This document shows, one piece after another, positions 9,041-37,305 of a stretch of 64,000 nucleotides of DNA. This DNA is from Patescibacteria group bacterium (GTDB lineage Bacteria > Patescibacteriota > Microgenomatia > UBA8517). Each line of letters opens with the position of its first letter. The stretch's first letter is position 1. Below the pieces are notes generated by a model, which did no database searches, was not told the origin of the DNA, and worked only from the letters and a program-made list of their open reading frames with translations. The stretch covers positions 12,314-76,313 of the forward strand of contig JBGQJK010000001.1 in the NCBI GenBank assembly GCA_041499035.1, read 5' to 3'. The translations under genes were made by a program, and so were the position numbers.

Positions 9041-10255
9041 TTACTTGATTGTGAGTGTGTAAAGGTTAGGGGATGCCGTTCCGGCTCCCAGGTTGGTCAG
9101 AATTAGAAGTCTTGTTGTATTATTGAACGGGAAAGCAAAGGAACCTATATACGAACCCGAATAGACGGTTTCTTTATTTGTTCCGTCATAATCCATAATT
9201 ACTACCTGCCCGGGTTGGGCCAGCAAGAGCTGACGGCTGGTAGACATCCAGCGCAAAGCCGGAGTTTGTGAGCTATTAACTGTTAACTGTTGACTGTTTA
9301 GTATTACTTCTTGATTTGTTATCAAAAAATTACGATCTTCTTTGATATCATAAATATAGGTATGACCACTTTGAACTGCCCTTTCCTGTTTTTGGGTGGA
9401 GGCCCCGGGGAGCGGTTTTATTAAGTTATCCGATAAAGTGCCCGAGCCGCTGGCGGTATAAAGGATCATGTTTGCGTCCGGAGAAAAAACGAAATCGCGG
9501 GTTTTGCGGGTTAAAATGTCGGTTAGTTCTGGCGGCAAATTCCTAATTAGGCTAGTATCTTTTACCGACTTTTCCTGTTGCCATTCCGTAATAGTTGCGG
9601 CCTTCTGGCTTGCAATGTTTACCCTTTGATTTTGAGGGGTAAATAAACCGGTATCGAGTACAGATATACCGTTTGATGTTGTTAGCATTATCTGTCTGCC
9701 GTCAGGTGAAAACGAATAACTGGCGTTTGTCAGGTCCCCGTCTGTAATTCGCCTCGGGTCATTGGAAAATCCTAAAGGGAGCGAGAACGTGTCGAGTGTC
9801 CAAAGACCGATTTTATCATCAGTAACGCCGTCACCGGGGAGAACAGTATAGGTAATCTTGCCCCCGTCGGGTGACATTAAGGGGTTTGAGGCTCCAGAGA
9901 AAGTTGCGGGGGAAAGGGATGGAACGTTCCTAAAAAGTGAGACAGTAGCCTGGGTCACAATCTCCTTATCAATTGTCAGGCGTTTGTACCAGCTAAAATA
10001 ACCGTCCTTCCTTACTTCGACGTCGTAAACACCGGGGGAGAGTGAGACTGTTGCGTTTGTGGCAGTTTTCAGGCTACCGTCAATCAGTACCGAAGCTCCG
10101 TCAGGCTCCGACTTAATTACCAGGATTCCGTTTGGCTGGAATTTAAGACTTCTAAAATCAAATCTGTAGCCTCTGGCATAATATGACACAAAAGCCCCGA
10201 CCGTACCAACTATTAATATACTTACGATAAAGGCAAGGAGGCGGATTCTAGCCAT
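9041..10255 (-). CDS. membrane-anchored PEGA-domain / beta-propeller (TolB-like) protein
   Basis: An N-terminal TM helix, a PEGA-like segment (VLIDGSLKTATNATVSLSPGVYDVEVRKDGY) and a beta-rich C-terminal region. Confidence 0.5.
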   Translation of the reverse strand: MARIRLLAFIVSILIVGTVGAFVSYYARGYRFDFRSLKFQPNGILVIKSEPDGASVLIDGSLKTATNATVSLSPGVYDVEVRKDGYFSWYKRLTIDKEIVTQATVSLFRNVPSLSPATFSGASNPLMSPDGGKITYTVLPGDGVTDDKIGLWTLDTFSLPLGFSNDPRRITDGDLTNASYSFSPDGRQIMLTTSNGISVLDTGLFTPQNQRVNIASQKAATITEWQQEKSVKDTSLIRNLPPELTDILTRKTRDFVFSPDANMILYTASGSGTLSDNLIKPLPGASTQKQERAVQSGHTYIYDIKEDRNFLITNQEVILNSQQLTVNSSQTPALRWMSTSRQLLLAQPGQVVIMDYDGTNKETVYSGSYIGSFAFPFNNTTRLLILTNLGAGTASPNLYTLTIK

Positions 10256-10327
10256 AGTCTATTATACCAGACTTGGCGTTTATCTGATCTGTTATAATCC
10301 TTTTATCCCGCTGTCGGGTGAACATCC

Positions 10328-11335
10328 ATGCTTAGGAAAAATATTGCTATTGATCTCGGCACTGCCAATACTCTGGTTTGGGTAGCCGGGGTAGGTTTAA
10401 TCGTAAACGAACCGACGGTTGTGGCTATATCTTCTGAGGATAACAAAGTTGTTGCTGTGGGAGAGGAGGCAAAATTGATGCTGGGGAGGACCCCGGAAGC
10501 CTTGATCGCAAGTAGGCCCATGCGAGACGGTGTTATCGCTGACTATCAGGTAACCGAGGCCATGCTCAGGTATTTTATAGGCAAAGTTACGGGCAGATTC
10601 CAGTTTTTTAAGCCTGAAGTCATGGTCTGCGTGCCTGCAGGGTGCACTCAAGTTGAGAGGCGAGCCGCTCTTGACGCGACTCTTTCCGCCGGTGCCGCGC
10701 ATGCATATTTGATTGATGAACCTCTGGCGGCCGCGATTGGGGCAGGAATACCCGTTTCCGCTCCCTCGGGGCACATGATTGTCGATATCGGTGGAGGCTC
10801 TACCGAGGCTGCCGTAATTTCGCTAGGAGGCGTTGTTACTCACAAATCGGTACGCGTGGCCGGGAATAAGATCGACGAAGCTATTCAAAGCCATCTTAAA
10901 AAGAAGCATAATTTAATTGTGGGGGATACTACTGCGGAAGACATTAAGCTCAAAATCGGCTCGGCAACCCTTCTGGCCAAGGAGGAGAAATTGGAAATTT
11001 CCGGACGCGATCTGGTCTTTGGACTCCCAAGGAGCGTAGTCATAACCAGCAACGAAATTTGCGAAGCTATTAAACCTGTTCTAATGCAAATAATCGGAGG
11101 AGTTAAAGCAGTTTTAGAAGATACGCCGCCGGAACTGGCGGCGGACATTATAGATAAGGGGATTGTAATGAGCGGCGGAACTTCGACGCTCAGGAATTTT
11201 GATAAACTCATGACGGAAGAGACCGGCGTTCCCGCGCACGTTGCGGACGAGCCGCTACTCTGCGTTGTCCGGGGCACAGGGCTGGTGCTTGAAAACATTG
11301 AGCTTTGGAAGAGGAGTATTACCAACAAAAGATAA
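10328..11335 (+). CDS. mreB: rod-shape-determining actin homologue MreB
   Basis: N-terminal IAIDLGTANTLVWV; the actin-fold phosphate and adenosine motifs run throughout. Confidence 0.9.
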   Translation: MLRKNIAIDLGTANTLVWVAGVGLIVNEPTVVAISSEDNKVVAVGEEAKLMLGRTPEALIASRPMRDGVIADYQVTEAMLRYFIGKVTGRFQFFKPEVMVCVPAGCTQVERRAALDATLSAGAAHAYLIDEPLAAAIGAGIPVSAPSGHMIVDIGGGSTEAAVISLGGVVTHKSVRVAGNKIDEAIQSHLKKKHNLIVGDTTAEDIKLKIGSATLLAKEEKLEISGRDLVFGLPRSVVITSNEICEAIKPVLMQIIGGVKAVLEDTPPELAADIIDKGIVMSGGTSTLRNFDKLMTEETGVPAHVADEPLLCVVRGTGLVLENIELWKRSITNKR

Positions 11336-11746
11336 TATAGGGTATATCTATAAATAGGGAAGAGTTTGTATTATAGGTAAAATATATCAATAATATGAGA
11401 GATGATATAAAGTCCGATGCCCCGGGAAATAGAATAATTTGGCGAGCTAAGGTATTTTTCTTATAGTATTAATAATATTCTGTAAATAATTGCGGATAGA
11501 TTGAGGATAAATGATTATAATTAAAGCAAAAAAAAGAGCTAATAAATTGCTCAAAAATGTGTATTTAAAGTAATTTTGTTTTAATAAATTTACCCTGTAG
11601 TTTAATTATATTAATAGTGAAAATGACAGAATTGTCAGCAAAATATATCAATTAATATAGGATAAATCGAAATGCGGGAAAAGTAGAGCCAGTAATACAA
11701 AAACTCTGAATTATAAGATAGATGGTAAAAATTTTACAAAAAATTA

Positions 11747-12538
11747 ATGAAAATTACTAACGAAACGTCCCAAAATCACGTCAATATATTAGGAATTAAA
11801 GTCCTTAGCACTCAGGTGGGCCGTTTGCTAGCAAACGTGAGAGACAATATAACCCATAATTATAGATTTTATATTGTAACCCCAAATCCTGAACTTGTTT
11901 TGGCTTCAACATCCAATTCATTACTCAAACTTGCCCTTAACTCTTCGGATTTTTCTATTCCGGATGGAGTAGGTTTAAATTATGCTTCAAGGTTTCTATA
12001 TGGAAAGCCGATAAACATTATTCCGGGCAGAAACCTTTTTCATAATCTAATAGAATTGGCTAACAAAAAAGGTTGGAGGGTATTTTTCTTAGGTGGAAAG
12101 GCATTGGAAGCCCAAAAAGCGGCGGATAGACTGAAATTGAATTACAAGAAAATAAGAATAGAAACCTTTTCCGGTCCTAAACTAAATAAAGATGGTCAAC
12201 CGCTAGGTGAAAATGATAAGTCTTTGCAAAAAGAGGCCGTTTCTATGATAAATAAATTTTCCCCCCAACTTCTCTTTGTGGCATTTGGTAATCCCAAGCA
12301 GGAGATTTGGCTCTATAAAAATCTTAAAGGCCTGAATATCGGGGGAGCAATGGCAGTAGGGGGTACTTTCCGCTACACCGCGGGGTTATCCAAACTTCCT
12401 CCAAAGTGGATGGAAAAAGCGGGCTTAGAATGGCTTTGGAGACTTATTACGGAGCCCCGGAGACTCGGAAGGATTATTAATGCATCAATTGTTTTCCCTT
12501 TAAGAGTTTTCCTATTTAAGATTGGAGTCCGAGACTAG
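11747..12538 (+). CDS. WecB/TagA/CpsF-family glycosyltransferase
   Basis: FVAFGNPKQEIW motif and a size typical of WecG/TagA. Confidence 0.7.
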   Translation: MKITNETSQNHVNILGIKVLSTQVGRLLANVRDNITHNYRFYIVTPNPELVLASTSNSLLKLALNSSDFSIPDGVGLNYASRFLYGKPINIIPGRNLFHNLIELANKKGWRVFFLGGKALEAQKAADRLKLNYKKIRIETFSGPKLNKDGQPLGENDKSLQKEAVSMINKFSPQLLFVAFGNPKQEIWLYKNLKGLNIGGAMAVGGTFRYTAGLSKLPPKWMEKAGLEWLWRLITEPRRLGRIINASIVFPLRVFLFKIGVRD

Positions 12539-12770
12539 GATTACAGGCCGCTCGGTCCAGGAAGTGTGATAAATCTGATGCTGAACCGTTTGTTTCAACT
12601 ATAGCTTCACCATTCGGTTGTATTCCGCCACAAATAGCTTCACCTAAGCGAATCGCGTTTGCTGCTCTTGCTGAGCAAGTTAGACATTTTGGGGCGATCT
12701 GCCTGGCTATTTCAGAATCTGAGGCCCTGATCACTGTCATATCTTTTCCTTCGATTAATTGTATAGACAT
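12516..12770 (-). CDS. small Cys-containing protein, DUF1858-like (tentative)
   Basis: CLTCSA...LGEA...GI pattern; it resembles the small minus-strand ORF at 31506-31784. Confidence 0.3.
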   Translation of the reverse strand: MSIQLIEGKDMTVIRASDSEIARQIAPKCLTCSARAANAIRLGEAICGGIQPNGEAIVETNGSASDLSHFLDRAACNPSLGLQS

Positions 12771-12902
12771 GTGTGGTATTTTATATGAAGCCGGATTTTT
12801 GTCAACCGGCCAAATATATATAGTAAGATTTTTTCAGAAGGATTTAAGTAGAGTTTCAAAATTGCCTATTGACATAGCCTGTGAAAGACGTAAATATATG
12901 CT

Positions 12903-13592
12903 ATGAAAAGGTTTTCAGTTGTTATTTTTCTTCTTGGACTGCTTGTGTTCCTTTCCGGTGCTTCATCCGCGAAAGCATTTTCGGCAGGTCCTGTTGGCAG
13001 AAATGCACTAAGAGCATATCCGGGCCCCGGAGTTGGTGAAGTTACAATTGATTGGCAGCGATATTTCCTGGATGGTGAGAATTTTTCGCTTCATTATGGC
13101 ACAGTCCCTGGTGGTTATCAGTGGGTTGCTCCTTATATTGGTTACATTAGTACTTATACAGTTAGAGGTTTGACTCCCGGTAAAAGATACTTTTTTGCGG
13201 TAGAGGGCATAAGAACGGGGGGATCGTCGGCAGGCTGGGATGGTGAAGTTTCGGCTATTGCGCCGAGTGCTCCGACTACTGTAGTTATAGGCGGCCCGAT
13301 TGGTAGAAACTCTTTGGTCGCAAAAACTGGAGCAAAAAGCGGTACGGTTGATCTTACCTGGAAGAGATTCTTTAATGATACCCAACTTTACAGCATCGTT
13401 TATGGTCTGCAACCGGGTAAGTTTATCTATGGAGTTTTAAACGCAGTTGATACAACTCCTGCAGATGTAGGTAATTATACCTACACAATTGGCGCTCTAC
13501 GCCCCGGAGTAAGATATTACTTCGCTCTGGTTCCTCAGAGGAATGGCCAGGCTATATACGTGAGTACTCAAACCTCGGCAGTAGCCAGATAA
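12903..13592 (+). CDS. secreted protein with two tandem FN3-like beta-sandwich repeats
   Basis: A signal peptide and an internal duplication (GPVGRNALRAYPG...DWQRYF and GPIGRNSLVAKTG...TWKRFF). Confidence 0.45.
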   Translation: MKRFSVVIFLLGLLVFLSGASSAKAFSAGPVGRNALRAYPGPGVGEVTIDWQRYFLDGENFSLHYGTVPGGYQWVAPYIGYISTYTVRGLTPGKRYFFAVEGIRTGGSSAGWDGEVSAIAPSAPTTVVIGGPIGRNSLVAKTGAKSGTVDLTWKRFFNDTQLYSIVYGLQPGKFIYGVLNAVDTTPADVGNYTYTIGALRPGVRYYFALVPQRNGQAIYVSTQTSAVAR

Positions 13593-13600
13593 ATTCTTCT

Positions 13601-14041
13601 CTATATTAGTTTAACTCTTTGAATCAAGCCGTCTATCTTGTCGGTAATTTTTTTGTAGATCTCCTCTGTTTCCGGAATTGCGATTGAATCCTGTTCCAGG
13701 CTATTTTTGAGATCTTCTATATCCCAGATTTCAAAATTCTTTCCCTCGAAGCCAAGCCCATCTACACACCAGTCGTACTGCATCTTCTGCATAAAGACTA
13801 TCAAATCCATGCCATCGAGCGATTCTTTAACTGTCTGGTGCCAAGTTGATGATTCAAAAGGAATCAAATTGTTATTCTTGATTATTCTTTGGGCTTGCCA
13901 AGTAATTGGCCCGTCAAGAGCATTACTGGCTTCAATGCCGCTCGAGCTAACCTCAAGCCCTTTTATCTGCTTCGAATTTAAATAAGCCTCAGCCATACGG
14001 CTTCTGAATGTATTTCCTTTGCAGACAAAGTGGATTTTCAT
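13601..14041 (-). CDS. low-molecular-weight protein-tyrosine phosphatase / ArsC-type
   Basis: P-loop VCKGNTFRSRMAEA (CX5R) at the N-terminus. The start is trimmed to the MKIHFVC Met to avoid overlapping the sigma-factor gene. Confidence 0.7.
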   Translation of the reverse strand: MKIHFVCKGNTFRSRMAEAYLNSKQIKGLEVSSSGIEASNALDGPITWQAQRIIKNNNLIPFESSTWHQTVKESLDGMDLIVFMQKMQYDWCVDGLGFEGKNFEIWDIEDLKNSLEQDSIAIPETEEIYKKITDKIDGLIQRVKLI

Positions 14042-14045
14042 TATA

Positions 14046-14588
14046 TTATTTTGATTGCTTTTCCCAAACTTCGGCAAAATCCTCTTTGGCCCTGTAAATT
14101 CTTCCCTCAACCGCTCGCTCGGAGATTCCCATTATCTTACCGATTTGCTCGTAGGAATAATCTTTCCAATACTTGAACCACAAGAGACGTCTTTTTTCAA
14201 ACGGTAGTAAGTTCAGACAATCGTTGACGGAAACTCTTAATTCTTTAAGCGCCAAAGTTTCTTCCGGCGACAATTTATCTGTGTCAATATATGTCAAACT
14301 ATCAAGTAGAGGAACAATAAAGCGCGAATTTTCGTTGACTTGGTCATGATAGTAGTCGGCAATTTTGTTTAAAGCGATTCTGCAAAGCCAGGTAAAATAT
14401 GAACTTTTGTGTTCAAAAGCTTTATAGCCTTTCCATCCGGCAACAATTGTTTCTTCAAAAACTTCCTCAACTGCCGTTTGATCCTTTCTCAAATGTTTGG
14501 CAATGAATTTAAAAAGGGCGGGGGAGTATTTTTTATACTGTGCCTCAAACCGTTTGTGATGTTTAAAACCGAAGCGTGGGTTTTGCAT
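14046..14588 (-). CDS. ECF-type sigma-70 family RNA polymerase sigma factor
   Basis: Region 2 (YFTWLCRIALNKIADYY) and a region-4 HTH (YEQIGKIMGISERAVEGRIYRAKE). Confidence 0.75.
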   Translation of the reverse strand: MQNPRFGFKHHKRFEAQYKKYSPALFKFIAKHLRKDQTAVEEVFEETIVAGWKGYKAFEHKSSYFTWLCRIALNKIADYYHDQVNENSRFIVPLLDSLTYIDTDKLSPEETLALKELRVSVNDCLNLLPFEKRRLLWFKYWKDYSYEQIGKIMGISERAVEGRIYRAKEDFAEVWEKQSK

Positions 14589-14612
14589 AAAACTTAGGAC
14601 TAATTATATACT

Positions 14613-14855
14613 ATGAACACTGCTGAAGGGATAAGGTCGGAGGAACGATACAGATTTGAAGCACCAACGGAAGAGATTAAGGCACCCAGAATTGATCTAA
14701 GCGAACTGCTGCAGGAGGGTGGCGAAATGTTACAGGAAGGCTGGAATTTGGTTTGGGAGTATCCCGGAAGCAAAGAAAATCATGAATGGTTTTTGGTAAA
14801 GTGGATTGATGGGAAGATCCAACAGGTTATAGGAAGTGGAAACGGAAGAAAATAA
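14613..14855 (+). CDS. hypothetical small protein
   Basis: An ORF only. Confidence 0.25.
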   Translation: MNTAEGIRSEERYRFEAPTEEIKAPRIDLSELLQEGGEMLQEGWNLVWEYPGSKENHEWFLVKWIDGKIQQVIGSGNGRK

Positions 14856-14916
14856 GTGAGAAAATACTGCTTCAAGTTAAAATATCGCTTAATAATGTAT
14901 AATTCCAAGTGAATTT

Positions 14917-16002
14917 ATGAACAAAATAAACGGGTTGTTAGGCAAAAAATACCTCTCTGATTATCTGAAGAAATCTGACCCGCTTTTTGAACGATTTCTC
15001 AAGAAAAAGGAAAATGAGTCCAGAATGAACGATCCTTTGGATGGGGAAATTATCAAGCGTTTTACAGAAGTTGCTAAATTAGGCAAGAAAATAAGGGGGG
15101 CGTTAGTTGTTTTGGGCTATCAGATCGGTGCCGGAAAGATAGATAAAAACATTATAGATACCAGTCTCTTCGTCGAGCTGTTTCACGCAGGCGTTTTGGT
15201 TCATGATGATATTCAAGATCGAGGTGATTTTCGTCGTGGGCTGCCTACGTTACACAGGCAGTTTGAAAAGTTGGGATCAAAACTAGGCGTGACAATTGAC
15301 AAGTATCACTATGGTGAATCAATCGCAATTGATGCAGGTATTTCCGCTTACTTTTATTCTTTTGATAAATTACTAAAATCCAAGTTTCCTCAAGATCGCC
15401 TGATAGAAACCGCCCTTCTATATTCCAAGTATGTTCAAAGAGTCTCTGACGGACAGTCACTAGACATTACAGGGATGACTTCCAAAAAAGTTGAAGAAAA
15501 ATACGTTTTAACAATGCTAAAACTAAAGGCTGCAGAATACACCGGCGTTATGCCATTGCTTTGTGGAGCTTCTCTGGCGGGTATGAAAGATGCAACGAGG
15601 CTAAAAGCGATGGAAGAATATGGGCTCTGTTTTGGATGGGCATTTCAAATTCAAGATGACCTTTTAGGTTTATATGGTAATGAGATCGAACTGGGTAAGG
15701 TAGTAGGGTCTGATATAAAAGAGGGGAAGAATACGTTATTTACTTTCTATTTATCTAAACATGGCAATAAAGATCAAATTGCCTTTATGAAAAAAACTCT
15801 GGGTAATCAGAATGCTAGCAGGAAAGACATAAAGAATTTCAAACGCATACTTAAGGAGACAGGATCTTACGATTATGTAATTAAAACTGGCTGGAATTAT
15901 GTGGAAAGGGGTAGAAAACAAATTCCGTATATTACCCATGACCGGAAAATTCAAGACATTTTAGAGTCCTTAATTTATTACATGATGGAGCGAACACTGT
16001 GA
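14917..16002 (+). CDS. trans-polyprenyl diphosphate synthase (GGPP/FPP synthase family)
   Basis: First DDxxD-type motif LVHDDIQD and second motif FQIQDDLLG. Confidence 0.8.
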   Translation: MNKINGLLGKKYLSDYLKKSDPLFERFLKKKENESRMNDPLDGEIIKRFTEVAKLGKKIRGALVVLGYQIGAGKIDKNIIDTSLFVELFHAGVLVHDDIQDRGDFRRGLPTLHRQFEKLGSKLGVTIDKYHYGESIAIDAGISAYFYSFDKLLKSKFPQDRLIETALLYSKYVQRVSDGQSLDITGMTSKKVEEKYVLTMLKLKAAEYTGVMPLLCGASLAGMKDATRLKAMEEYGLCFGWAFQIQDDLLGLYGNEIELGKVVGSDIKEGKNTLFTFYLSKHGNKDQIAFMKKTLGNQNASRKDIKNFKRILKETGSYDYVIKTGWNYVERGRKQIPYITHDRKIQDILESLIYYMMERTL

Positions 16003-16011
16003 TACTTTGGT

Positions 16012-16917
16012 ATGAACAAAGAAATTATAAATGGTGGCCATTTGGATATAGGAAAAGGACAGTATGAGTGGTGGTATTTCGATTTTGTCGGGAAAAACGG
16101 GGATGCTTTTAACATAATCATGCATGCCTCAGATGTCTTTGGAATTGATCAAAATACATACTATTCTGCATCTTTTTTATATAGAGATGGTGTCCAAAAA
16201 TATCTAAGGGGAAAGGAGAAGGGGTTTGAGATAAAAAGAGGGGGAGCCTTTCTTTCCGTCGAAAACGGACTCGTTCTTGAGGATGAAAAGTGGATTAAAT
16301 TTGACTTAGCATTTGACGACAGCACATCCATAAAAGGGAGGATCGAAAAAAATAAAAGATTAAAACCAATTAATAATGGTGTTTTATATGAGGCAGAAAG
16401 CCGGTTCGGGATGTGGGTTCCTTCGATTGTGAACGGGAAGTTTGATATCCAAATAACTAAAGATGGAAAAGAAAAGTTTTTTAGAGGGCATGCCTACCAT
16501 GATCACCAGTGGGGGAATTTACCGATACAAGAACATATCTATGACTGGGTGTGGGGCCACTTTAATCAAGGTAGCCTTGGGACCGTTTTTTTTAAGATTA
16601 GAACGAATTCCAACGATATAATAAATAGATACTATCTTATCGATTCCAATAATGTCATGTCCGGTTCGGATGAAATCAGAGAAGATTTTTTTGCGCAACT
16701 AATTAATAATCCTAAACCGGAAACTTCCAGATTAGATGTTAATATTGATATTGAAAGTAATGCACTATCCTTCAAGATTTCTCCCGATGAATTAATGCGG
16801 CGAAGAATAGGCGAAAGAGTTGGAGATAAGCTCTTTACCTATTTGCGGTGGAGCACGGATTGTGTATTTGGTTACAGAAAAATGCAAGGAATCACTGAAT
16901 ATATGAGGTTTAGATAA
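16012..16917 (+). CDS. CrtC/AttH-like (hydroxyneurosporene synthase-type lipocalin) protein
   Basis: N-terminal EWWYFD and a DHQWGN motif, both characteristic of the AttH/CrtC family. Confidence 0.45.
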   Translation: MNKEIINGGHLDIGKGQYEWWYFDFVGKNGDAFNIIMHASDVFGIDQNTYYSASFLYRDGVQKYLRGKEKGFEIKRGGAFLSVENGLVLEDEKWIKFDLAFDDSTSIKGRIEKNKRLKPINNGVLYEAESRFGMWVPSIVNGKFDIQITKDGKEKFFRGHAYHDHQWGNLPIQEHIYDWVWGHFNQGSLGTVFFKIRTNSNDIINRYYLIDSNNVMSGSDEIREDFFAQLINNPKPETSRLDVNIDIESNALSFKISPDELMRRRIGERVGDKLFTYLRWSTDCVFGYRKMQGITEYMRFR

Positions 16918-16918
16918 A

Positions 16919-17491
16919 ATGGATTTTACAATAGTTATTTTAGCTGGATATGCTGGTGCTGGTAAATCTACGATTGCCCGGTCTCTTTCGGGTCGATCTG
17001 GGCTTGGTTTTGTTGATCATCAAAAAGTCTTGCACGACATTGCGGCTTCCAAAGGTTTTGATCGATCAAGGTATTGGCTGGAGGAGGTCGGGTTTGAGGA
17101 ATTTACCAGAGAGTCTACCCGAAAATTAATTGAACTAACTGCGCAGGTTAAATCCGGCGGCGGTCGAGGTGTAATTTTAGACGCTGCTTATGGAACTCTG
17201 ATGGTAAAGGAGTTTAGAGATAAGTTTCCGGATTCTAAATTGCTAATTGGAGAGGTAATCGCAGGCCAAGAAATTCGCGCGGAAAGGATTGGGCATAGAA
17301 TGGGTGGTGTCAATAAAGAATCTGCTGCTTCTGAAATGAGATTCAGAGATGATTTTTTAGACAGTGTTGGCTTAGAACAAGTTCTCCCTCTTGTGGATTT
17401 TAGGATAGAAAATAAGGTGAATGGGAATTTAGATGAGGTTGTATTAGATATAGAGACAAAACTCAAAGGTCTTGGAGTCGGTATGGTATAA
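16919..17491 (+). CDS. P-loop NTPase/small-molecule kinase-fold protein
   Basis: Walker A GYAGAGKST; about 190 aa. Confidence 0.45.
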   Translation: MDFTIVILAGYAGAGKSTIARSLSGRSGLGFVDHQKVLHDIAASKGFDRSRYWLEEVGFEEFTRESTRKLIELTAQVKSGGGRGVILDAAYGTLMVKEFRDKFPDSKLLIGEVIAGQEIRAERIGHRMGGVNKESAASEMRFRDDFLDSVGLEQVLPLVDFRIENKVNGNLDEVVLDIETKLKGLGVGMV

Positions 17492-17500
17492 TCTTCAGGC

Positions 17501-18751
17501 ATGGCAGAACAGATTAGTCTCCCCAAAGGCACGGTTCTTCCCAACCACATAGCTATGATCCTTGATGGCAACCGTCGCTGGGCACGTTCGCGTGGGTTTG
17601 AACCGTGGCAGGGGCACTATTATGGTTATAAGGCTGTTAATGCATTAGCGCACGCTACGCGTAACCTTGGGATCCATACGTTCACAGTTTGGGCTTTCTC
17701 TACAGAAAATTGGGAGCGACCGAAGCATGAAATTGACGAGATAATGAATATTTTCAGGCGGGCTCTCAAAGAAACCGAAAAGGATTTCCATAAAGAGCAC
17801 GTTGCTATGGTTCACCTTGGTAGAAAAGATAGATTGCCCATCGATATTCGTTCTGAAGTTGCAAGAATCGAGGCCGAAACGGCAAAATACGCGCCTGAGC
17901 ATATTTTTAATATGGCCATTGATTATGGGGGTAGGGATGAAATTGTCCGCGCCGTTCAAAAAATTGTTAAGGACAAAGTTCCGGCGGATAAGGTTGACGA
18001 AAAAGCTTTTGAAAAATACTTAGATACTTACGGGCAACCTTATCCTGATCCGGACCTTTTCATCCGTACCAGTGGGGAACAGCGTACAAGCGGGCTTCTT
18101 CCGTGGCAGATGACCTATACGGAATTTTATTTTGAGCAGGAACATCTTCCTGACTTTTCTCCCGAAAAACTAAAAGAGGCAATTTTGGACTATAGCAGAC
18201 GCAGGCGCAGATTTGGTGGCAACGATGCCCTGGAGCATTTTGGCTTTGATCCGGAAGTTTTGGCACGCTTGGAACTTAAATGGTGGAGACTCGGGAACGT
18301 TCCGGAGGGAATGAAACTTCGCGAATATGCCATGAAACATATAAGGGAACAATACGGGCTATCAAAGGAGCTCGGTACCCGGGCAGCTCGGCTTCTATTG
18401 GAAGCAATAGCCGAGGAAAACAGGAATAAGCTTGATGAAGCCAAAAACAGTCTCAAAAAGTTTTACAAACTTATTAAGGCTGAAGTTAAGTTGGCATTTG
18501 AACCGGAGATAGTTGCCTCACTCGAGGTAAGGATGCGAGGCGAAAAAGGGGAAGTGGAGGATACCACCCGCGAATATTTGGCGGAAGTTTATAGAATTTC
18601 ACTTTTCCAGGCGGCAAAGGCCGCTCATCTTAAAGTTCTGGCGTCTGTCGAGCGCAATTTAGCCCAAGCGGGGATGGGCGAGAACCACTGGGTTAAGGCG
18701 GAAGATTATCTCCAAAAGTACTACCGCGCACTGAAGGAACGTGTCGCGTGA
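17501..18751 (+). CDS. uppS: cis-prenyltransferase (undecaprenyl-diphosphate synthase family) with a ~170-aa helical C-terminal extension
   Basis: DGNRRWA motif and the rest of the UPPS core; 416 aa in total against a typical ~250. Confidence 0.75.
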   Translation: MAEQISLPKGTVLPNHIAMILDGNRRWARSRGFEPWQGHYYGYKAVNALAHATRNLGIHTFTVWAFSTENWERPKHEIDEIMNIFRRALKETEKDFHKEHVAMVHLGRKDRLPIDIRSEVARIEAETAKYAPEHIFNMAIDYGGRDEIVRAVQKIVKDKVPADKVDEKAFEKYLDTYGQPYPDPDLFIRTSGEQRTSGLLPWQMTYTEFYFEQEHLPDFSPEKLKEAILDYSRRRRRFGGNDALEHFGFDPEVLARLELKWWRLGNVPEGMKLREYAMKHIREQYGLSKELGTRAARLLLEAIAEENRNKLDEAKNSLKKFYKLIKAEVKLAFEPEIVASLEVRMRGEKGEVEDTTREYLAEVYRISLFQAAKAAHLKVLASVERNLAQAGMGENHWVKAEDYLQKYYRALKERVA

Positions 18752-18840: not shown

Positions 18841-20406
18841 GTGTTTAACCGAAGGCGCTTACCGATGGAAGTTGAGCTTGTGGTTTTAAGCTTCCTGGCA
18901 GTTTCTTTATTCACTTTTGCTTACTCATTACAAAACAATTCCCAAAAACCCCAAAAATCAAAAGCTGCAGGCAACACTTACTATGTTTCAACAGGCGGAA
19001 ACGACGCTAATCCAGGCTCGCTTGTCCTGCCTTTTGGAAGTCTAGCAAAAGTGGCCAGTGTGGCCAGAAGCGGAGACACAATTTTTGTAAGAGGCGGAAA
19101 TTATACCTCCGTTGTTGGCGGAGTTAAGTTTTCTGATAGTAATGTCACACTTCGTAATTATCCAGGCGAGCAGGTAGTTATCAAAATGCCTGCCGGGTCG
19201 CATAATAACGATTGGTCGATGTTCCAGTGCTGGCATTCCCCCCCAGGAACAGCGGCTGCAAATGGTTTTGAAGCTGATGGAATCAAAGTTCTTGGAACAG
19301 ACGTTAGCCCTCAAACTTTGCGCGACGGAGTTGTTAGTAAAAAAGGTATTGTTCTTTATACCGATCCGGGTCAATCAAATGCAACTGAAGCCAGTGGGTT
19401 TGAAGTCTCGGGTTGCAACAACTGGGAGGTTTCCGGCGTTGATTTTGTCGGGATGGGCTATGGCATTTTCCAAAAGAAGTGGCTCTACTCGTATGCAGGA
19501 ACAGGAGGGGTAAACTATGCAACTCATGGCTGGTACGTTCATAACAACCGTGTTTACGGCTATACACGGGAGTCCGGATTTCAATTCAATGGTAACTCAA
19601 ACTTAATTGAGAATAATGAGATTCATAAAGTTCTAACCTATACTAACAGTCCATATGGGTGTCAAGGTCTTAACCTACTCGGCCACGACAACATCGTCAG
19701 AAATAATACCATCGATATTTATGGCTCGCCGGTCAGGTGTGACGGAATTCTTTTTGAGTGGGACATCTCGGATAATAACCTCATCGAAAATAATATTATT
19801 TATGGCACCATCGGGTCTTCCTTTAATGTTCAGGGTGGGGATGGCAATATCATTCGTAATAATCAGATATCAAACGGCTACAATGTGTTTGCCCCAAACG
19901 GCAGTACGGCTACATCCTGGCCCTGTGATGAACTTGCTCCGGGTAACTCTGCCGCCTCAATTGTTCCCGCGAATAGCCCCGCAGCTACCGACTATCAGTA
20001 CTTTTGGAATCCCCGCGATTGTGCCTCAAGGAACAATCAATTTAGCGGCAATGTTGTAATACCACCGAGCGGAGTAGGTGGAAACCCTGTTCCTACACCG
20101 ACACCAACAAAAACTCCAAGCCCTACCCCAACGTTAACACCAACCCATACACCGTCGTCTTCACCTACAAAAACGCCTTCCCCTGGACCAAGCGGAACAG
20201 GAAGCCATACTCCCACACCAATTCCTACAGGAACCGCTAAAGTGGGGGATGTGAATGCCGATGGGCTAATTAATATCGTTGATATAGGGTTGATAATTGA
20301 CAATTATGGACAAAGAAACCCTTCATACGTAAAAACAGATGTTAACGGAGACGGCATAGTTAATATAATCGATATTGGCATCGTGATAGACAACTACGGT
20401 AAGTAA
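18841..20406 (+). CDS. secreted right-handed beta-helix (pectate-lyase fold) protein with a Pro/Thr linker and C-terminal class-1 dockerin-like module
   Basis: PbH1-type repeats (NNxIxxN...), a PTPTPTKTPSPTPT linker, and a C-terminal GDVNADGLINIVDIGLIIDNYG ... DVNGDGIVNIIDIGIVIDNYGK. Confidence 0.6.
   Translation: MFNRRRLPMEVELVVLSFLAVSLFTFAYSLQNNSQKPQKSKAAGNTYYVSTGGNDANPGSLVLPFGSLAKVASVARSGDTIFVRGGNYTSVVGGVKFSDSNVTLRNYPGEQVVIKMPAGSHNNDWSMFQCWHSPPGTAAANGFEADGIKVLGTDVSPQTLRDGVVSKKGIVLYTDPGQSNATEASGFEVSGCNNWEVSGVDFVGMGYGIFQKKWLYSYAGTGGVNYATHGWYVHNNRVYGYTRESGFQFNGNSNLIENNEIHKVLTYTNSPYGCQGLNLLGHDNIVRNNTIDIYGSPVRCDGILFEWDISDNNLIENNIIYGTIGSSFNVQGGDGNIIRNNQISNGYNVFAPNGSTATSWPCDELAPGNSAASIVPANSPAATDYQYFWNPRDCASRNNQFSGNVVIPPSGVGGNPVPTPTPTKTPSPTPTLTPTHTPSSSPTKTPSPGPSGTGSHTPTPIPTGTAKVGDVNADGLINIVDIGLIIDNYGQRNPSYVKTDVNGDGIVNIIDIGIVIDNYGK
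20089..20230 (+). repeat. Pro/Thr-linker-coding low-complexity repeat (also at 30880-31080, 31190-31320 and 47330-47420)
   Basis: ccNacNccNac periodicity encoding PTPTPTKTPSPTPT. Confidence 0.6.
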
Positions 20407-20472
20407 TTCACTTTACACTTTTCACGGAAAAGTTTAAGCTTAAATATATTCGTGTTAGCGAATGTGTTTGGT

Positions 20473-22251
20473 ATGGAAAAAAGTAAATATATATTTTTCG
20501 TATTTCTTATAACCGTTTTAGTAAGCCTTGCGTTTCCCCAATTTATCCGTGCCTCAGATCTCACAATTGATTTTTCCCAAGTAACTGGCCCAGCCGAGCG
20601 CCATGCCACGGGGTTTGAATGGATTTTTCCGATGAATGTAACGGCCATAGGACCTTATGTAAGTCAATTAAAGCCAAACATTGTCAAGGACCCGTGGGGG
20701 AATGAGCAAACTGCGAGAGATCTTGGCGCACATAAAATTCAATGGCTGGTAGGAAATGCGGTGGTTACTAAAAATGGACCGGGTACGCATTGGTATCCGT
20801 GGCAGGACTATGCTGTCTGGCAGGCGTGGGTGGCAGGTCGAATAAACAGTTTAACTCAAAACGGCCAACCTCATGAGTGGGTTATTTGGCAAGAGGCCAA
20901 CTACGGTAATCCTGATGTTTGGTCAGGCACACAGGACCAATTTTTTAATACATGGAAAATTGCCGTTCAAACTATCCGTAGCATACGCCCCACTGATCCA
21001 ATAGTAGGCCCAAGCCCGGTACCGTTTGATGCAACATATCTTGAGGCGTTCTTACTCTATGCCAAAGCCAATAATGTTTTGCCGGACGTTCTTTCCTGGC
21101 ACGAACTTACTGATATTGGAGGTACTGTTCCTGCTTTTAATATATATTCATACACCCCAGACCAAATACCCTCGCATGTTAATACAATGAAGCAATTTAT
21201 GCAGGCGAATGGTATAACTTTGGTTAACAGATTTGATATTACGGAATACCAGGGTTTTTCCGACAATTACCGCCCGGGCCCGACGGTTGCGTTTATTGCA
21301 GACCTCGAACGCGTTGGGGCAGAAGGCACAAAAGGGAATTGGGCGGATGCAAATCAACTCGAAGGGCTAGTTACAGATCCGAGTACACCACAACCCCGCT
21401 CAATCTGGTGGGTTTACAAAAAATATGCAGATATGACGGGGAACTTGGTGACGACAACATTATCCAGCGCTATTAACGGATTTGGGTCGTATGACGTCGG
21501 AATGGGAAAGGCGATGGTCCTTGCAGGAAATCAGGGTGGGAGTGGTGCACGTACAATCCAATTAAATAATATTCCTTCTGCTATTGTAAGCGGCGGTAGT
21601 GTAGCCCTTACCCTGGAGCAAATTCCAGATACGGAAAAGGCTGCACTTACCAGCCCAACTATAATAAGCCAGTCAAATATTCCTGTTAGCGGCAACTCAG
21701 TTACGGTTTCGATACCTTCATTTGGTACATGGGATGCCTACGTGATAACTCTTAAAAAACCACTTCCTAATCCAATTAAATCTGCTGTGATATCTGCCAC
21801 TACAGTCACTGCTAGATTCGATACAGTTAATGCCTCTGCGGGTGATTGGCTTGGGGTTTATAAAACCGGAGCTTCCAATACGAGTTTCCTTTCTTGGAAA
21901 TGGATTGACAATACCACTGGGCCCAAACCCACAACAGCCATTACAAACGGAACAGTAGTACTAACGGTTCCAAATTCTACGGAAACTTATGAGGTTAGAT
22001 ATTTTACTAATGGATATCAACTGCTCGGATCGGCAAAGGTAACCACCGGTACCGGTCCTAGTCCCACACCAATTTCGATTAAACCTGGGGATCTTAATGA
22101 TGACGGTAAAGTTGACATTTTCGATTACAACATTCTGGTTGGAGATTATGGAAAAATAGGCTCTGCAGGATTTGTTCCCTCTGACATTGACAAAAACGGG
22201 AAGGTGGATATTTTTGACTACAATTTGCTAGTTGCGAATTATGGTAAATAA
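20473..22251 (+). CDS. secreted clan GH-A-like glycoside hydrolase with a beta-sandwich module and C-terminal class-2 dockerin-like module
   Basis: Conserved leader MEKSKYIF; WQEAN (acid/base) and ITEYQG (nucleophile) motifs; C-terminal GDLNDDGKVDIFDYNILVGDYGK...DIDKNGKVDIFDYNLLVANYGK. The ORF track starts at 20452. Confidence 0.55.
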   Translation: MEKSKYIFFVFLITVLVSLAFPQFIRASDLTIDFSQVTGPAERHATGFEWIFPMNVTAIGPYVSQLKPNIVKDPWGNEQTARDLGAHKIQWLVGNAVVTKNGPGTHWYPWQDYAVWQAWVAGRINSLTQNGQPHEWVIWQEANYGNPDVWSGTQDQFFNTWKIAVQTIRSIRPTDPIVGPSPVPFDATYLEAFLLYAKANNVLPDVLSWHELTDIGGTVPAFNIYSYTPDQIPSHVNTMKQFMQANGITLVNRFDITEYQGFSDNYRPGPTVAFIADLERVGAEGTKGNWADANQLEGLVTDPSTPQPRSIWWVYKKYADMTGNLVTTTLSSAINGFGSYDVGMGKAMVLAGNQGGSGARTIQLNNIPSAIVSGGSVALTLEQIPDTEKAALTSPTIISQSNIPVSGNSVTVSIPSFGTWDAYVITLKKPLPNPIKSAVISATTVTARFDTVNASAGDWLGVYKTGASNTSFLSWKWIDNTTGPKPTTAITNGTVVLTVPNSTETYEVRYFTNGYQLLGSAKVTTGTGPSPTPISIKPGDLNDDGKVDIFDYNILVGDYGKIGSAGFVPSDIDKNGKVDIFDYNLLVANYGK

Positions 22252-22280
22252 GCGGAGCTTGAAACTTATGAAGTTATAAA

Positions 22281-24071
22281 ATGAAAAAAAGTAAATATAT
22301 TTTTACATTTCTTCTGACATTTGCTGTGGCTTTAGTTTTTCCATACTCGGCTCATGCCTCTGACCTCACAATTGATTTTTCCCAGACGATTGGTCCAGCT
22401 CAGCGTCGTGCCACAGGATTTGAATGGCTTTACTTTCCAAATATGAATGCCATGCGCCCGTTCATAACTCAGCTGAAACCAAATATTATTAAAGATCCCC
22501 GTACTGAAGGTTTGGGCTTAAGTCCCGATAACTTTGGCACCGCACGATTTCAGGATATAATTGGACTGGAATATGCTCTCTTTAATTCTTCGTTCGATGG
22601 CGTATGGCCCTACAAGGACTATACAAAATGGCAAACGTTCGTTCAGAATAAAGTAACTACCTTAACCGCAAACGGTACAAAGTATGACTGGGCTATTTGG
22701 CAGGAACCCGACCAAGAGCTAGGAATGCCTGGCGATTACATTGACAAGGCGGTTTGGTCAGGTACCAGAGACCAGTTCTTTGAAACTTGGAAAGTCGCCG
22801 TTCAAGCAGTCCGTCAGCTTCGCCCAAACGATAAGATCGTAGGACCAAGCCTTAAAAGATTCCGTCCGGATTATCTGCAAAGCTTCCTATTGTATGCTAA
22901 AGGTAATAATGTTCTTCCAGACATTCTCTCGTGGAACCAAGTTGGAACCTATATAGGGGAAAATGGACAAACACCTAATGATATTCCCCCTCAGGTGGCA
23001 ACGATACGTCAATTTATGCAAAGTAATGGCATTCCAAATATTCCGATAGAAATAACTGAATACGGCATGTTTAAAAGTGAATATCAACCGGGCTATGCAG
23101 TGGCTTATATTACGAATATTGAACAGTCGCAAATAGAAGGGTCGATTGGTCAATGGGGATGGAGTGGAGTTGGAGGTGTGGTTGGAGGTGAGGGCGGAGA
23201 TTTTCCCAGATTATCCGGTCTGATTACAGATCCGAATGCCCCCCAACCACGTTCGGTCTGGTGGGTTTACAAAAGCTATGCGGATATGACAGGTAATATT
23301 GTTAAAACTACCGCGGCAACAGTCATTAACGGACTTGGAAGTTACGATACAGCCACCAATACTGCCAAAGTGCTTATTGGGAATCAAGCAGGAGTGATAG
23401 GTTCTAAGACAATAACCCTTAAAGGTCTTCCACAGGCCCTGCAAGGAAATGGCAATGTTTTGGCTAAAATTGAACACATTCCAAATACTGAAAGTAATCC
23501 TTTATATGTACCTAACGGAGTCTCAGTAATTCTCTTACCCTTTAGCAATGGTAATGTTGCGGTTACCGTACCTAACGTCGGCACACTCGACGCCGCAGTA
23601 ATTACGATTACCAAGCCGCCAACTATAAGTGCGAATGTTTCGTCAAATCAAATAAATGTCAGTTTTAATAATTCAATCGCACTGACAAATGATTGGATTG
23701 GCATTTTTAAACCGGGGGATGCAGTCAATGCTTATTTGGATTGGAAATGGTTGAATAATGCCCAAGGCGCAGCCCCTTCGAGTCCCGTTACCAACGGTTC
23801 TGTTACTTTAACTTTGCCAGCTGCGGGTAATTATGAAGTACGTTATATAAATGCAGGGTCAGTTTTAGCAACAACAAATGTATCTGTTGGTTCAACTGCT
23901 AAGATTGGCGATCTTAATGGTGACGGCAAGGTAGATTTTTATGATTACAACATTTTTGTTCCGGACTATGGTAAAACCGGTGCTCCCGGTTTTGTTGTTT
24001 CCGATATAGATAAGAATGGCAAGGTAGACATTTTTGATTACAACATTTTGGTCGGTAATTACGGGAAATAG
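22281..24071 (+). CDS. paralogous secreted GH-A-like hydrolase with class-2 dockerin-like module
   Basis: MKKSKYIF leader, WQEPD and ITEYGM motifs, and the same C-terminal dockerin. Confidence 0.55.
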   Translation: MKKSKYIFTFLLTFAVALVFPYSAHASDLTIDFSQTIGPAQRRATGFEWLYFPNMNAMRPFITQLKPNIIKDPRTEGLGLSPDNFGTARFQDIIGLEYALFNSSFDGVWPYKDYTKWQTFVQNKVTTLTANGTKYDWAIWQEPDQELGMPGDYIDKAVWSGTRDQFFETWKVAVQAVRQLRPNDKIVGPSLKRFRPDYLQSFLLYAKGNNVLPDILSWNQVGTYIGENGQTPNDIPPQVATIRQFMQSNGIPNIPIEITEYGMFKSEYQPGYAVAYITNIEQSQIEGSIGQWGWSGVGGVVGGEGGDFPRLSGLITDPNAPQPRSVWWVYKSYADMTGNIVKTTAATVINGLGSYDTATNTAKVLIGNQAGVIGSKTITLKGLPQALQGNGNVLAKIEHIPNTESNPLYVPNGVSVILLPFSNGNVAVTVPNVGTLDAAVITITKPPTISANVSSNQINVSFNNSIALTNDWIGIFKPGDAVNAYLDWKWLNNAQGAAPSSPVTNGSVTLTLPAAGNYEVRYINAGSVLATTNVSVGSTAKIGDLNGDGKVDFYDYNIFVPDYGKTGAPGFVVSDIDKNGKVDIFDYNILVGNYGK

Positions 24072-24073
24072 TT

Positions 24074-25345
24074 ATGAAAAAGAGTAAATATATTTTTATA
24101 GGATTTGTTTTAATTGCTTTTGCAGAATTCGTCTTTCCGTCATCAGCTCGTGCAGTTTCAATTCAATCTCAAGTCGACGCCGCGCCAGCCGGTTCCACAA
24201 TTCTCATTCAACCGGGCACTTATAACGAAGTTGTAACAATTAATAAAGCTATCATTTTAAAATGTGCTACCCAGAAGACCTGCGTCACGCATAGCTTTAT
24301 CATTAACGGCAGCGGGGTAACTGTAGACGGGTTTTACAGTTTAGGCTCGAGTAACTATGAGGGTGCAATGATTGTAAATGGAAATTCCAACACTGTCTCC
24401 AACAATGTTATCGAAAGTGCCTGTATGGCGGGAATTGTAATCAAAGGGAGTAGTAACCTGGCCCTGAACAATGAAATCTTAAAATCCCGGCAATGCCCGG
24501 GGAGCGGATCTGACGCTGACGGAATACGGATTTTTGCCGACGGAAACGTTGCCCGGGGAAATTATATTCATAATATTTCTTCACTTCAAAACCCGACCGC
24601 CCACATTGACTGTTTCCAGTCATGGGGAACACTTACTAATGCAACTATTGAAAATAATTATTGTTACAATTTGGAATCAGGTACAACCGGAGCCGGTACT
24701 ACAGGAGTTCAAACTGATGTTGGCAACGTTCACAATATCACAATCCGCAATAATGTCTTCCGTGTTGCCCACGGCCTTAACATGAGGGGAGATGGTATCT
24801 CTGCTACGAATAACGTTTTTGTTGGGGATTATTACAACACATCTTATGTGTTTTTGGATGTAATTACAGGTGCAATCTTCAAAAATAACATTATTTATAA
24901 TACTACCAACGGAATAATAGTCGGCTCAGCCTATAAAACAGGAATTACCGGCGGATATAATATTATTTACAATGCCAACGGCGCCGCTCCGAGTCGGGAT
25001 AGCGCCTATTTTTCCTCAACCGATAAATGGCAAACCATGAATCCGGCATTTGTTAATGCGAATTCAGGAGATTTTCATTTGCAATCAGGTTCACCCGCTT
25101 GTTCCGCCGGGGAAAACGGAACCTATGCCGGCGCATATTCTTGCGGAAGCGGTACGAGCCCGGTACTTTCCGCCAAACCCGGTGATCTTAATAATGACGC
25201 AAAGGTGGATATTTTTGATTACAATCTACTGGTTGGGGATTATGGAAAAACCGGTTCAGCCGGCTTTGTTCCTTCCGATATCGATAAAAACGGTAAGGTG
25301 GATATCTTCGATTACAACATTCTGGTGGGGAATTATGGGAAATAA
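24074..25345 (+). CDS. secreted beta-helix repeat protein with class-2 dockerin-like module
   Basis: MKKSKYIF leader, parallel beta-helix repeats (GNSNTVSNNVIESA... NNEILKS...) and the C-terminal dockerin. Confidence 0.55.
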   Translation: MKKSKYIFIGFVLIAFAEFVFPSSARAVSIQSQVDAAPAGSTILIQPGTYNEVVTINKAIILKCATQKTCVTHSFIINGSGVTVDGFYSLGSSNYEGAMIVNGNSNTVSNNVIESACMAGIVIKGSSNLALNNEILKSRQCPGSGSDADGIRIFADGNVARGNYIHNISSLQNPTAHIDCFQSWGTLTNATIENNYCYNLESGTTGAGTTGVQTDVGNVHNITIRNNVFRVAHGLNMRGDGISATNNVFVGDYYNTSYVFLDVITGAIFKNNIIYNTTNGIIVGSAYKTGITGGYNIIYNANGAAPSRDSAYFSSTDKWQTMNPAFVNANSGDFHLQSGSPACSAGENGTYAGAYSCGSGTSPVLSAKPGDLNNDAKVDIFDYNLLVGDYGKTGSAGFVPSDIDKNGKVDIFDYNILVGNYGK

Positions 25346-25347
25346 TT

Positions 25348-27435: not shown

Positions 27436-27455
27436 GCGGAGCTTGTTAGAATATC

Positions 27456-28691: not shown

Positions 28692-28693
28692 AC

Positions 28694-37199: not shown

Positions 37200-37305
37200 G
37201 GCAGATTTACCATTTTTCATTTTCCACTTTCCATTTATTTTCTAATTTCCAATTGACAAATTACAAATAGATGGCAGATGACAGATTGAAAATCGAAAAT
37301 TAAAT

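Follow-up and report, generated by a model that had tools for sequence, protein, structure and literature searches.

A kinase and a CrtC/AttH-fold protein, paired and sometimes fused, in the isoprenoid locus of some Microgenomates

The window analyzed here is a 64,000-nucleotide stretch of contig JBGQJK010000001.1 (positions 12,314 to 76,313, forward strand) from a Patescibacteria group bacterium, in which four plus-strand genes encode a trans-isoprenyl diphosphate synthase (IPPS; gene 1), a CrtC/AttH-fold protein (gene 2), a P-loop kinase (gene 3), and an UppS-type cis-prenyltransferase (gene 4). Genes 2 and 3 encode a new and uncharacterized putative two-component enzyme, a kinase with a CrtC/AttH-fold protein, sometimes fused, that some Microgenomates carry within their isoprenoid locus; a literature search found no paper on such a pair. 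At the level of sequence, the kinase and the CrtC-fold protein are shown to behave as one predicted functional unit, and the barrel of the latter to keep the putative acid–base and aromatic residues by which related enzymes form or quench tertiary carbocations on prenyl groups. Its gene neighborhood is an isoprenoid one, and an ATP-driven reaction on an isoprenoid is the probable function of the pair. A second new observation, a variant on a known enzyme, is the tandem-repeat tail that UppS carries throughout the clade.

The open reading frames (ORFs) of the four genes lie at 14917-16002, 16012-16917, 16919-17491, and 17501-18751, where the original prediction, made from the sequence alone, had placed them, and are tightly packed with intergenic gaps of 9, 1, and 9 nt. 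The P-loop protein had been regarded at that point as a separate, speculative kinase; it is rather the partner of the CrtC-like protein, to which it is fused in some genomes. At least nine proteins join a CrtC-like domain at the N terminus to a kinase at the C terminus (P0007, P0134, P0143, P0145, P0147, P0159, P0164, which is encoded on a 2.6-kb contig, P0168, and the ORF of locus L108). The kinase halves of these fusions are 28-35% identical to the stand-alone kinase of the window, and an alignment of fused and stand-alone kinases contains eight invariant residues: G10, G15, K16, R51, D88, R120, R123, and R127.

The order CrtC-like protein, kinase, UppS is found in the window and in L002/3, L004/5/107, L006, L007/8, L091, L098, and L111, with an IPPS gene upstream in all of these loci but L091, where the contig ends; it recurs in partial, truncated form in L099 and L113. 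About ten diverged loci have the pair placed between a trans-synthase and UppS, and the kinase gene is adjacent in about 13. The CrtC-like proteins at these syntenic loci are only 32-48% identical to that of the window, and in the five loci compared in full the identity to the window is 35-48% for the CrtC-like protein, 38-61% for the kinase, and 60-84% for UppS. Genes of the cassette are 1-10 nt apart or overlap. A second arrangement is seen in L094, where the fusion P0159 occupies the same slot behind PEGA, MreB, and WecG genes and is directly followed by a gene for a type-2 isopentenyl diphosphate (IPP) isomerase (IDI-2; TIGR02151, 390 bits against a cut-off of 281). No relative of the gene 3 kinase was found near distant members of the CrtC/AttH superfamily (0 of 103 loci). 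The cassette lies immediately upstream of UppS and seems to share a transcript with it. Promoter and terminator scans were uninformative, giving one weak promoter-like site at 14856-14883 and no plus-strand terminator-like site between the end of UppS (18751) and 19107.

Gene 2 (16012-16917, plus strand) encodes a cytoplasmic protein of 301 residues that belongs to a kinase-associated subfamily with the CrtC/AttH fold, a homology that only profiles and fold comparison could establish. The protein contains the EWWY motif at residues 19-22 (16066-16077) and HDHQWG at residues 163-168 (16498-16515, within GHAYHDHQWGN), both noted in the original prediction together with a CrtC/AttH-family call. 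The call holds for the superfamily and the fold and fails for the family. Gene 2 was matched by neither PF07143 (CrtC) nor PF17186 (Lipocalin_9) at E ≤ 0.01, Pfam returning only a sub-threshold AsqO_C match; it scored 23 bits against the NCBIfam CrtC model NF045922, which has a cut-off of 400, and a phmmer search of PDB sequences gave nothing. Its AlphaFold2 (AF2) model (pLDDT, the predicted local distance difference test, 84) matched AttH 2ich best in Foldseek (E 4e-12, TM-score 0.67), followed by fungal decalin-forming pericyclases, kievitone hydratase, and 25-phosphosteroid lyase. All 27 Foldseek matches at E ≤ 1e-3 fall within the CrtC/AttH superfamily, at 10-13% identity. A 53-sequence family profile also matched 2ich (7e-8), and 19 of the 53 members match PF07143, with a best E of 2e-8. 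Membership of gene 2 in the superfamily is solid, at the superfamily and fold level only.

The 2ich protein, the two-domain, lipocalin-like NE1406, is the best structural and sequence-profile match to gene 2 at 12% identity; it lacks the HETDIFG, R263, and EYMRFR features of the gene 2 subfamily and has no known function. An exhaustive profile search collected 1,591 relatives of gene 2, 74 of them at E ≤ 1e-30, against only 9 from a word-index search. When genome contigs were searched with a broad-family alignment, only distant superfamily members from unrelated phyla were found (20-34% identity) and no loci of the Candidate Phyla Radiation (CPR); these members provided the negative control for kinase adjacency.

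Tyr162 and Asp164 of gene 2 align with Tyr266 and Asp268 of CrtC and are invariant in the family, as are W20, W21, Y22, W135, W167, W179, W181, Y277, R279, and E296. In the numbering of R. gelatinosus CrtC, the essential set consists of His239, Trp241, Tyr266, and Asp268, and alanine mutants of Tyr266 and Asp268 are inactive (PMC4717167). Gene 2 has in common with CrtC (PF07143) and kievitone hydratase (7a0q) the fold, the G-H-A-Y-x-D-x-x-W-G signature with its essential Tyr/Asp, and the Trp-rich EWWY. Unlike CrtC, it fails the CrtC models, does not conserve His239, has a dedicated kinase partner, is cytoplasmic and shorter, and is accompanied by no carotenoid genes, either in the window or in the related loci examined. 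The protein has no N-terminal leader, unlike distant members, in which the first 25-70 residues precede the match. Most of the residues that set the kinase-linked subfamily apart have polar or charged side chains (N34, H38, T40, D41, S52, E90, R263, and R299).

The characterized members CrtC and kievitone hydratase add water to prenyl double bonds, and the cassette lies between trans- and cis-prenyltransferases in a window that also contains WecG/TagA and Wzy_C genes. It is conceivable from these features, but distinctly unlikely, that the CrtC-like protein hydrates a double bond (the omega-terminal isoprene, for example) of the prenyl primer or the polyprenyl product to yield a modified carrier for glycan assembly, as the original prediction had suggested, with the kinase acting at another position or being unrelated. 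Such a role leaves the obligatory kinase partner and the fusions unexplained, and the fusion P0159 has IDI-2 as its neighbor and no prenyltransferase in the vicinity. If a tertiary alcohol formed by hydration were then phosphorylated, the ester would moreover be very labile (PMC8449060), and no evidence ties the cassette to the far-off Wzy_C genes.

Gene 3 (16919-17491, plus strand), whose start codon lies 1 nt past the gene 2 stop, encodes a 190-residue protein assigned by weak Pfam matches and the family profile as a small-molecule kinase of the P-loop nucleoside monophosphate (NMP) kinase fold. The P-loop kinase fold named in the original prediction is borne out by a Walker A motif, GYAGAGKS, at 16946-16969 and by the weak kinase-family matches; Asp88 and a possible lid arginine cluster (R120/R123/R127) are also present. 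Pfam returned weak, generic hits to AAA_17, AAA_18, and AAA_33 and a marginal one to SKI (22.9 bits against 22.1, covering half of the model), and the animal-type P-loop phosphomevalonate kinase family was not among the Pfam matches. None of the curated NCBIfam kinases was passed (shikimate, CMP, dephospho-CoA, and homoserine kinases; 15-29 bits against cut-offs of 102-560). The best solved matches of the kinase family profile, at 3e-10 over the whole domain, were the uncharacterized archaeal UPF0200/AdkA-like proteins 3lw7 and 3h0k. A word-index search with the kinase profile returned 7 proteins and was swamped by generic P-loop words. In L004 (6909-7322; equivalent to L005 and L107) the kinase is cut to 137 residues, with the lid and C-terminal part gone and a gap of ~150 nt before UppS; the cassette may be decaying in that lineage.

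Annotation pipelines name the kinase inconsistently, as 'cytidylate kinase' or 'dephospho-CoA kinase'. The pair could be unrelated to isoprenoids, its position reflecting gene order inherited within one CPR clade and the kinase being, for example, a nucleotide or cofactor kinase; these labels, the location of L106 and L108 among replication and translation genes, and the pairing of the cassette with a MutT-like Nudix gene in one sub-lineage would fit. We regard this as the least probable of the explanations considered here. None of the curated kinase models comes near its cut-off, isoprenoid genes accompany the pair in two arrangements, with IPPS/UppS and with IDI-2, and the superfamily of the CrtC-fold partner acts on isoprenoid-type substrates.

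In the sub-lineage mentioned, a divergent small Nudix gene always precedes the pair or fusion (L093:7516-7926(-), L095:58-504(-), L103:1-284(-), and L105:98-538(-)); it is MutT-like by NCBIfam and not IDI-1. Because Nudix enzymes can dephosphorylate prenyl diphosphates, this gene may be functionally linked to the cassette.

In the ordinary part of the locus, the trans-synthase makes an allylic primer that UppS extends to the polyprenyl diphosphate used in cell-wall synthesis. In the model proposed for the pair, an isoprenoid or a precursor would receive a phosphate from ATP through the P-loop kinase, on a hydroxyl that is probably a tertiary alcohol, and the CrtC-fold partner, with its Tyr/Asp acid–base pocket and aromatic residues, would expel the phosphate via a tertiary carbocation to leave an alkene. 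The net reaction would be an ATP-dependent dehydration of the kind carried out by 25-hydroxysteroid kinase (25-HSK) and 25-phosphosteroid lyase (25-PSL). In anaerobic degradation of the steroid side chain, a tertiary alcohol is first phosphorylated by a kinase, and the alkene then forms when a separate lyase removes the phosphate (PMC8449060, PMC11061730). A tertiary phosphoester is very energy-rich (PMC8449060), so that a cell would make one mainly to eliminate the phosphate, and for this reason an ATP-dependent reaction at an isoprenoid-type hydroxyl, either dehydration or elimination, is the favored reading of the pair. With the order of steps, the chemistry, and the substrate all drawn by analogy, it is put forward tentatively, as the leading candidate at somewhat less than an even chance.

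We infer that 25-HSK and 25-PSL of Sterolibacterium denitrificans (9fzn, 9g2i, and 9g4c), a kinase and a phosphate-eliminating lyase acting on an isoprenoid-type tertiary alcohol, are the closest mechanistic precedent for the pair. The likeness of 25-PSL to gene 2 is one of fold (Foldseek E 7e-8 to 6e-7 and TM-score 0.59-0.61 for the structures 9fzn, 9g4c, and 9g2i, the best values being 7e-8 and 0.61, at 10-13% identity), and phmmer and profile searches found no sequence-level match between the gene 2 family and the lyase. 25-HSK and gene 3 are likened by their role as ATP-dependent partners and not by sequence comparison. The 25-HSK and 25-PSL genes are not adjacent (PMC8449060), whereas the kinase and CrtC-fold genes studied here are adjacent or fused, and the organisms and likely substrates of the two systems differ.

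Several observations weigh against an ATP-dependent dehydration. 25-PSL is one of several fold neighbors of gene 2 and not the closest, and the identity to all of them is 10-13%. The position of CrtC His239 is occupied by Gly, Asn, Phe, or Val in the gene 2 family. The cassette is missing from L009 and L010, where IPPS lies directly beside UppS (UppS 70% and 86% identical to that of the window), and because these close relatives lack it, it looks accessory and dispensable or has been lost repeatedly; a minority of genomes, the window's among them, have it. The pairs or fusions of L106 and L108 lie among housekeeping genes for replication and translation, and L097 and L100-L104 encode a barrel protein with no detectable adjacent kinase. 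The barrel could also serve to bind lipid and have no catalytic role.

The kinase-less members (L097:4995-5618 and L100-L104) are 326-352 residues long, and in L102 and L104 the next ORF encodes a ~200-residue predicted membrane-like protein; the CrtC-fold subfamily may have other partners.

A lipid-binding barrel would be central to a salvage pathway, in which the P-loop kinase would receive a scavenged prenol (farnesol, geranylgeraniol, or undecaprenol) from the lipocalin-like protein. A second phosphate may then come from IPK (isopentenyl phosphate kinase) or another kinase, refilling the lipid-carrier pool of a symbiont unable to make most lipids. The AttH/CrtC fold is a calycin fold that binds lipids (PMC2954199), CrtC accepts geranylgeraniol (PMC6013536), IPK is encoded nearby, the cassette is apparently co-transcribed with UppS, and fusion would place a lipid pocket beside the kinase site. 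Set against this are the strictly kept Tyr/Asp and Trp residues of the superfamily, needless in a passive carrier, the polar rather than hydrophobic nature of the subfamily-specific residues, and the lack of a membrane anchor. Salvage of prenols or polyprenols is the least unlikely of the alternatives to dehydration, yet still improbable.

The polar residues, which suit a small anionic substrate, lead to a further alternative within the mevalonate pathway. Tertiary alcohols occur in that pathway mainly as mevalonate derivatives. The kinase might phosphorylate mevalonate 5-phosphate at its tertiary 3-OH (mevalonate and mevalonate 5-diphosphate being other candidate substrates), and the CrtC-fold protein might eliminate the phosphate with decarboxylation to isopentenyl phosphate (or IPP), feeding the IPK of CPR bacteria. 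This bypass would be a non-GHMP analogue of the Thermoplasma-type pathway, in which 3-OH phosphorylation (mevalonate 3-kinase) and ATP-independent decarboxylative elimination (mevalonate 3,5-bisphosphate decarboxylase) reside in separate enzymes and give isopentenyl phosphate, on which IPK acts (PMC5177888). The likeness lies in the split of phosphorylation and elimination upstream of IPK. The Thermoplasma enzymes have the GHMP fold and the window pair P-loop and lipocalin-like folds, making the relationship one of analogy and not homology.

Several features favor a bypass. Across the related loci the cassette adjoins genes for IPK, IDI-2, and both prenyltransferases, the role of the CPR and Microgenomates IPK homologue is unexplained (PMC6107057), and gene 2 is cytoplasmic without the N-terminal leader region of distant members. 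On the other side, Microgenomates are reported to carry the full GHMP set of MVK, PMVK, and DPMD (PMC6107057), and known members of the fold act on large hydrophobic substrates. Close relatives keep IPK or IDI at the locus yet lack the pair, so that the pair cannot be the only route, and it diverges faster than UppS (35-48% and 38-61% against 60-84% identity), which is unusual for a core pathway step. A mevalonate bypass ranks just behind salvage and is likewise unlikely; its specific form, in which the pair is a non-GHMP, sometimes fused replacement of the mevalonate-phosphate decarboxylase step that acts through 3-OH phosphorylation and a lipocalin-fold lyase to give isopentenyl phosphate, is less likely still.

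The identity of the neighboring IPK and isomerase genes is clear from curated models. IPK of the relatives scores 196-205 bits against a cut-off of 120 and adjoins the locus in L002, L006, L007/8, and L111, and their type-1 IPP isomerase (IDI-1) scores 151 bits against 127. The window itself is without the IPK or IDI-1 gene that relatives carry just upstream of the isoprenoid genes. Family searches found no mevalonate-pathway genes in any major ORF of the window, and none of the four cluster proteins has a Pfam or NCBIfam match to GHMP mevalonate-pathway kinases or decarboxylases. The original prediction had considered a prenyl-chain module notable in a CPR genome. This view does not hold, since most Microgenomates have a mevalonate pathway whose genes are typically syntenic with a cis-prenyltransferase gene (PMC6107057), and a trans- and cis-prenyltransferase pair is therefore expected here; in relatives, too, an IPPS–UppS pair occupies this conserved locus. 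Apart from two unexplained additions, the UppS tail and the kinase/CrtC-fold cassette, this is an ordinary Microgenomates lipid-carrier locus.

Gene 4 (17501-18751, plus strand) encodes a 416-residue UppS with an unusual C terminus. Residues 1-240 (17501-18220) form a complete catalytic domain by PF01255 and TIGR00055, containing the motifs DGNRRWA, FSTENW, and RTSGE and ending in RRRRRFGG at residues 233-240, the RxG motif. PF01255, one of the families suggested at the outset, matches at E 2e-70 over residues 20-239 only, and TIGR00055 (uppS) is passed with 213 bits against a cut-off of 109.55. With all catalytic motifs and the RxG end, this part resembles bacterial UppS such as 1jp3 and 1f75. 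Solved bacterial UppS chains are single-domain proteins of 225-296 residues, in contrast to the 416 of the window protein, and PDB matches to UppS and DHDDS span only residues ~3-252; residues 241-416 lie outside every UppS match.

The all-helical extension (residues 241-416; 18221-18751), delimited by conservation and hhalign, comprises 176 residues and begins directly after the RxG motif. A helical extension of ~170 residues had been predicted, with a frameshift or assembly artefact named as what would refute it. Such an artefact is rejected: the best 120 of 7,934 UppS matches are 396-434 residues long, cover 96-100% of the query at 68-100% identity, and all carry the full-length tail, which is thus conserved in at least 120 protein clusters. 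Across lineages the tail is 52-80% identical, slightly less conserved than the catalytic domain.

The tail is a tandem duplication of a helical unit of ~80 residues, repeat 1 spanning residues 251-329 (18251-18487) and repeat 2 residues 335-415 (18503-18745); hhalign of the two halves gave a probability of 96-97% and E-values of 4e-10 to 8e-9. An AF2 model of the tail alone has seven helices and is all-helical at low confidence (pLDDT 56), and no fold was assigned from it. No relatives of the tail were found in Pfam or among PDB sequences beyond about residue 252, and Foldseek, queried with this low-confidence model, gave no match at E ≤ 1e-3. A literature search found no paper on an extended UppS. 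Human DHDDS also has a C-terminal helical extension, which is shorter and serves oligomerization. We infer that the tail of the window protein may mediate oligomerization or docking to a partner or to the membrane.

Gene 1 (14917-16002, plus strand; 361 residues) is a GGPPS-like trans-isoprenyl diphosphate synthase (PF00348 polyprenyl_synt, E 3e-48). The synthase identity named in the original prediction stands, as does the first aspartate-rich motif, DDIQD (residues 97-101; 15205-15219); the second is DDLLG (residues 247-251; 15655-15669) and not the DDxxD that had been claimed. The best solved relative, geranylgeranyl pyrophosphate synthase 3lk5 of the actinobacterial type (8e-29), has the same DDLLG variant, and identity to it is modest. 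The best NCBIfam matches are short- and medium-chain synthases, all under their equivalog cut-offs, and the JGI label is 'GGPP synthase type I'.

Relatives usually have a different IPPS at this position, a conserved protein of ~296 residues encoded on the opposite strand (L002:5063-5953, L009:9055-9954, and L010:9074-9955) with Trp at position -5 before DDxxD. The 3lk5-like window protein is only 25-29% identical to it, and the locus looks like a case of gene replacement. The four genes had been taken together as one module for prenyl synthesis and modification; the conserved unit instead comprises the CrtC-like protein, the kinase, and UppS.

The nearest homologues are from Patescibacteria, Microgenomates, and Woesebacteria metagenome-assembled genomes, and the cluster continues a conserved gene order. 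Upstream, at 9041-14855 on mixed strands, Pfam identifies PEGA (-), MreB, a WecG/TagA glycosyltransferase, and an extracytoplasmic function (ECF)-type sigma factor (-), followed by an 80-residue ORF; this order recurs in L002, L006, L007, L009, L010, and L094. With relatives included, the full backbone reads peptidase M16, PEGA, MreB, WecG/TagA, ECF sigma factor, small ORF, IPK or IDI-1, IPPS, and UppS. On the 3' side of UppS, relatives have a MerR-like helix-turn-helix gene, and an ATP-binding cassette (ABC) transporter and ATP-grasp cluster comes next.

The ECF-type sigma-70 gene (-) and the divergent 80-residue ORF occupy 14046-14855. The small ORF has no family match and is 73-90 residues long in relatives; the two genes form a conserved pair that immediately precedes the isoprenoid genes in L002, L009, and L010, and in L007 the sigma gene is present and the small ORF was not called. 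The small ORF may encode an anti-sigma factor or another regulator. Between WecG/TagA and the sigma factor, the window has an insert, absent from relatives, that encodes a secreted protein resembling fn3 and purple-acid-phosphatase N domains (12903-13592) and a low-molecular-weight phosphotyrosine phosphatase (13601-14110, -). Farther upstream, 7775-8839 encodes a 354-residue protein that matches adenylate kinase only in part, over residues 130-202, where L009 and L010 have a nucleoside diphosphate kinase.

Directly downstream of UppS, ~13 kb of the window (18841-31497) encode large secreted-looking proteins with a Pel9A-like beta-helix, dockerin, cohesin, a weak GH39 match, and Laminin_G_3; L010 has only a 339-residue ORF at that site before peptidase M32. 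A further cohesin protein is encoded at 47011-48144 and a dockerin protein at 48148-48822, and a putative cohesin–dockerin system in a Microgenomates genome may be worth a separate look. At 36303-41025 lie genes for a 7TM_transglut membrane protein, ATPgrasp_ST, two RimK-like ATP-grasp ligases, and a methyltransferase. This cluster, also found downstream of UppS in L002, L009, and L010, looks like a peptide- or amino acid-ligating system. Two Wzy_C (O-antigen-ligase-like) membrane proteins, one of them fused to tetratricopeptide (TPR) repeats, are encoded at 48794-49915 and 62189-63994 (-), 30-45 kb from the isoprenoid cluster, and nothing connecting them to it was found. Two genes of the D-Ala-D-Ala-ligase family flank a C39 peptidase-like gene at 54103-57320, likewise with no sign of a link to the isoprenoid cluster.

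CPR metabolism is minimal, and conserved unknown genes in its few biosynthetic loci are leads to missing chemistry. The UppS tail is a clade-wide modification of an essential enzyme that is an antibiotic target. If the pair carries out the proposed dehydration, it would be the second independent case of a kinase and phospho-lyase 'ATP-dependent dehydration' in the CrtC/AttH fold, after anaerobic steroid degradation, and in an anabolic isoprenoid setting. If the mevalonate bypass were true, the mevalonate pathway would have a fifth variant, and the retention of an archaeal-type IPK in CPR bacteria would be explained. If the substrate is instead a prenol or polyprenol, the pair would reveal a way for symbionts poor in lipids to sustain the lipid carrier of their cell wall.

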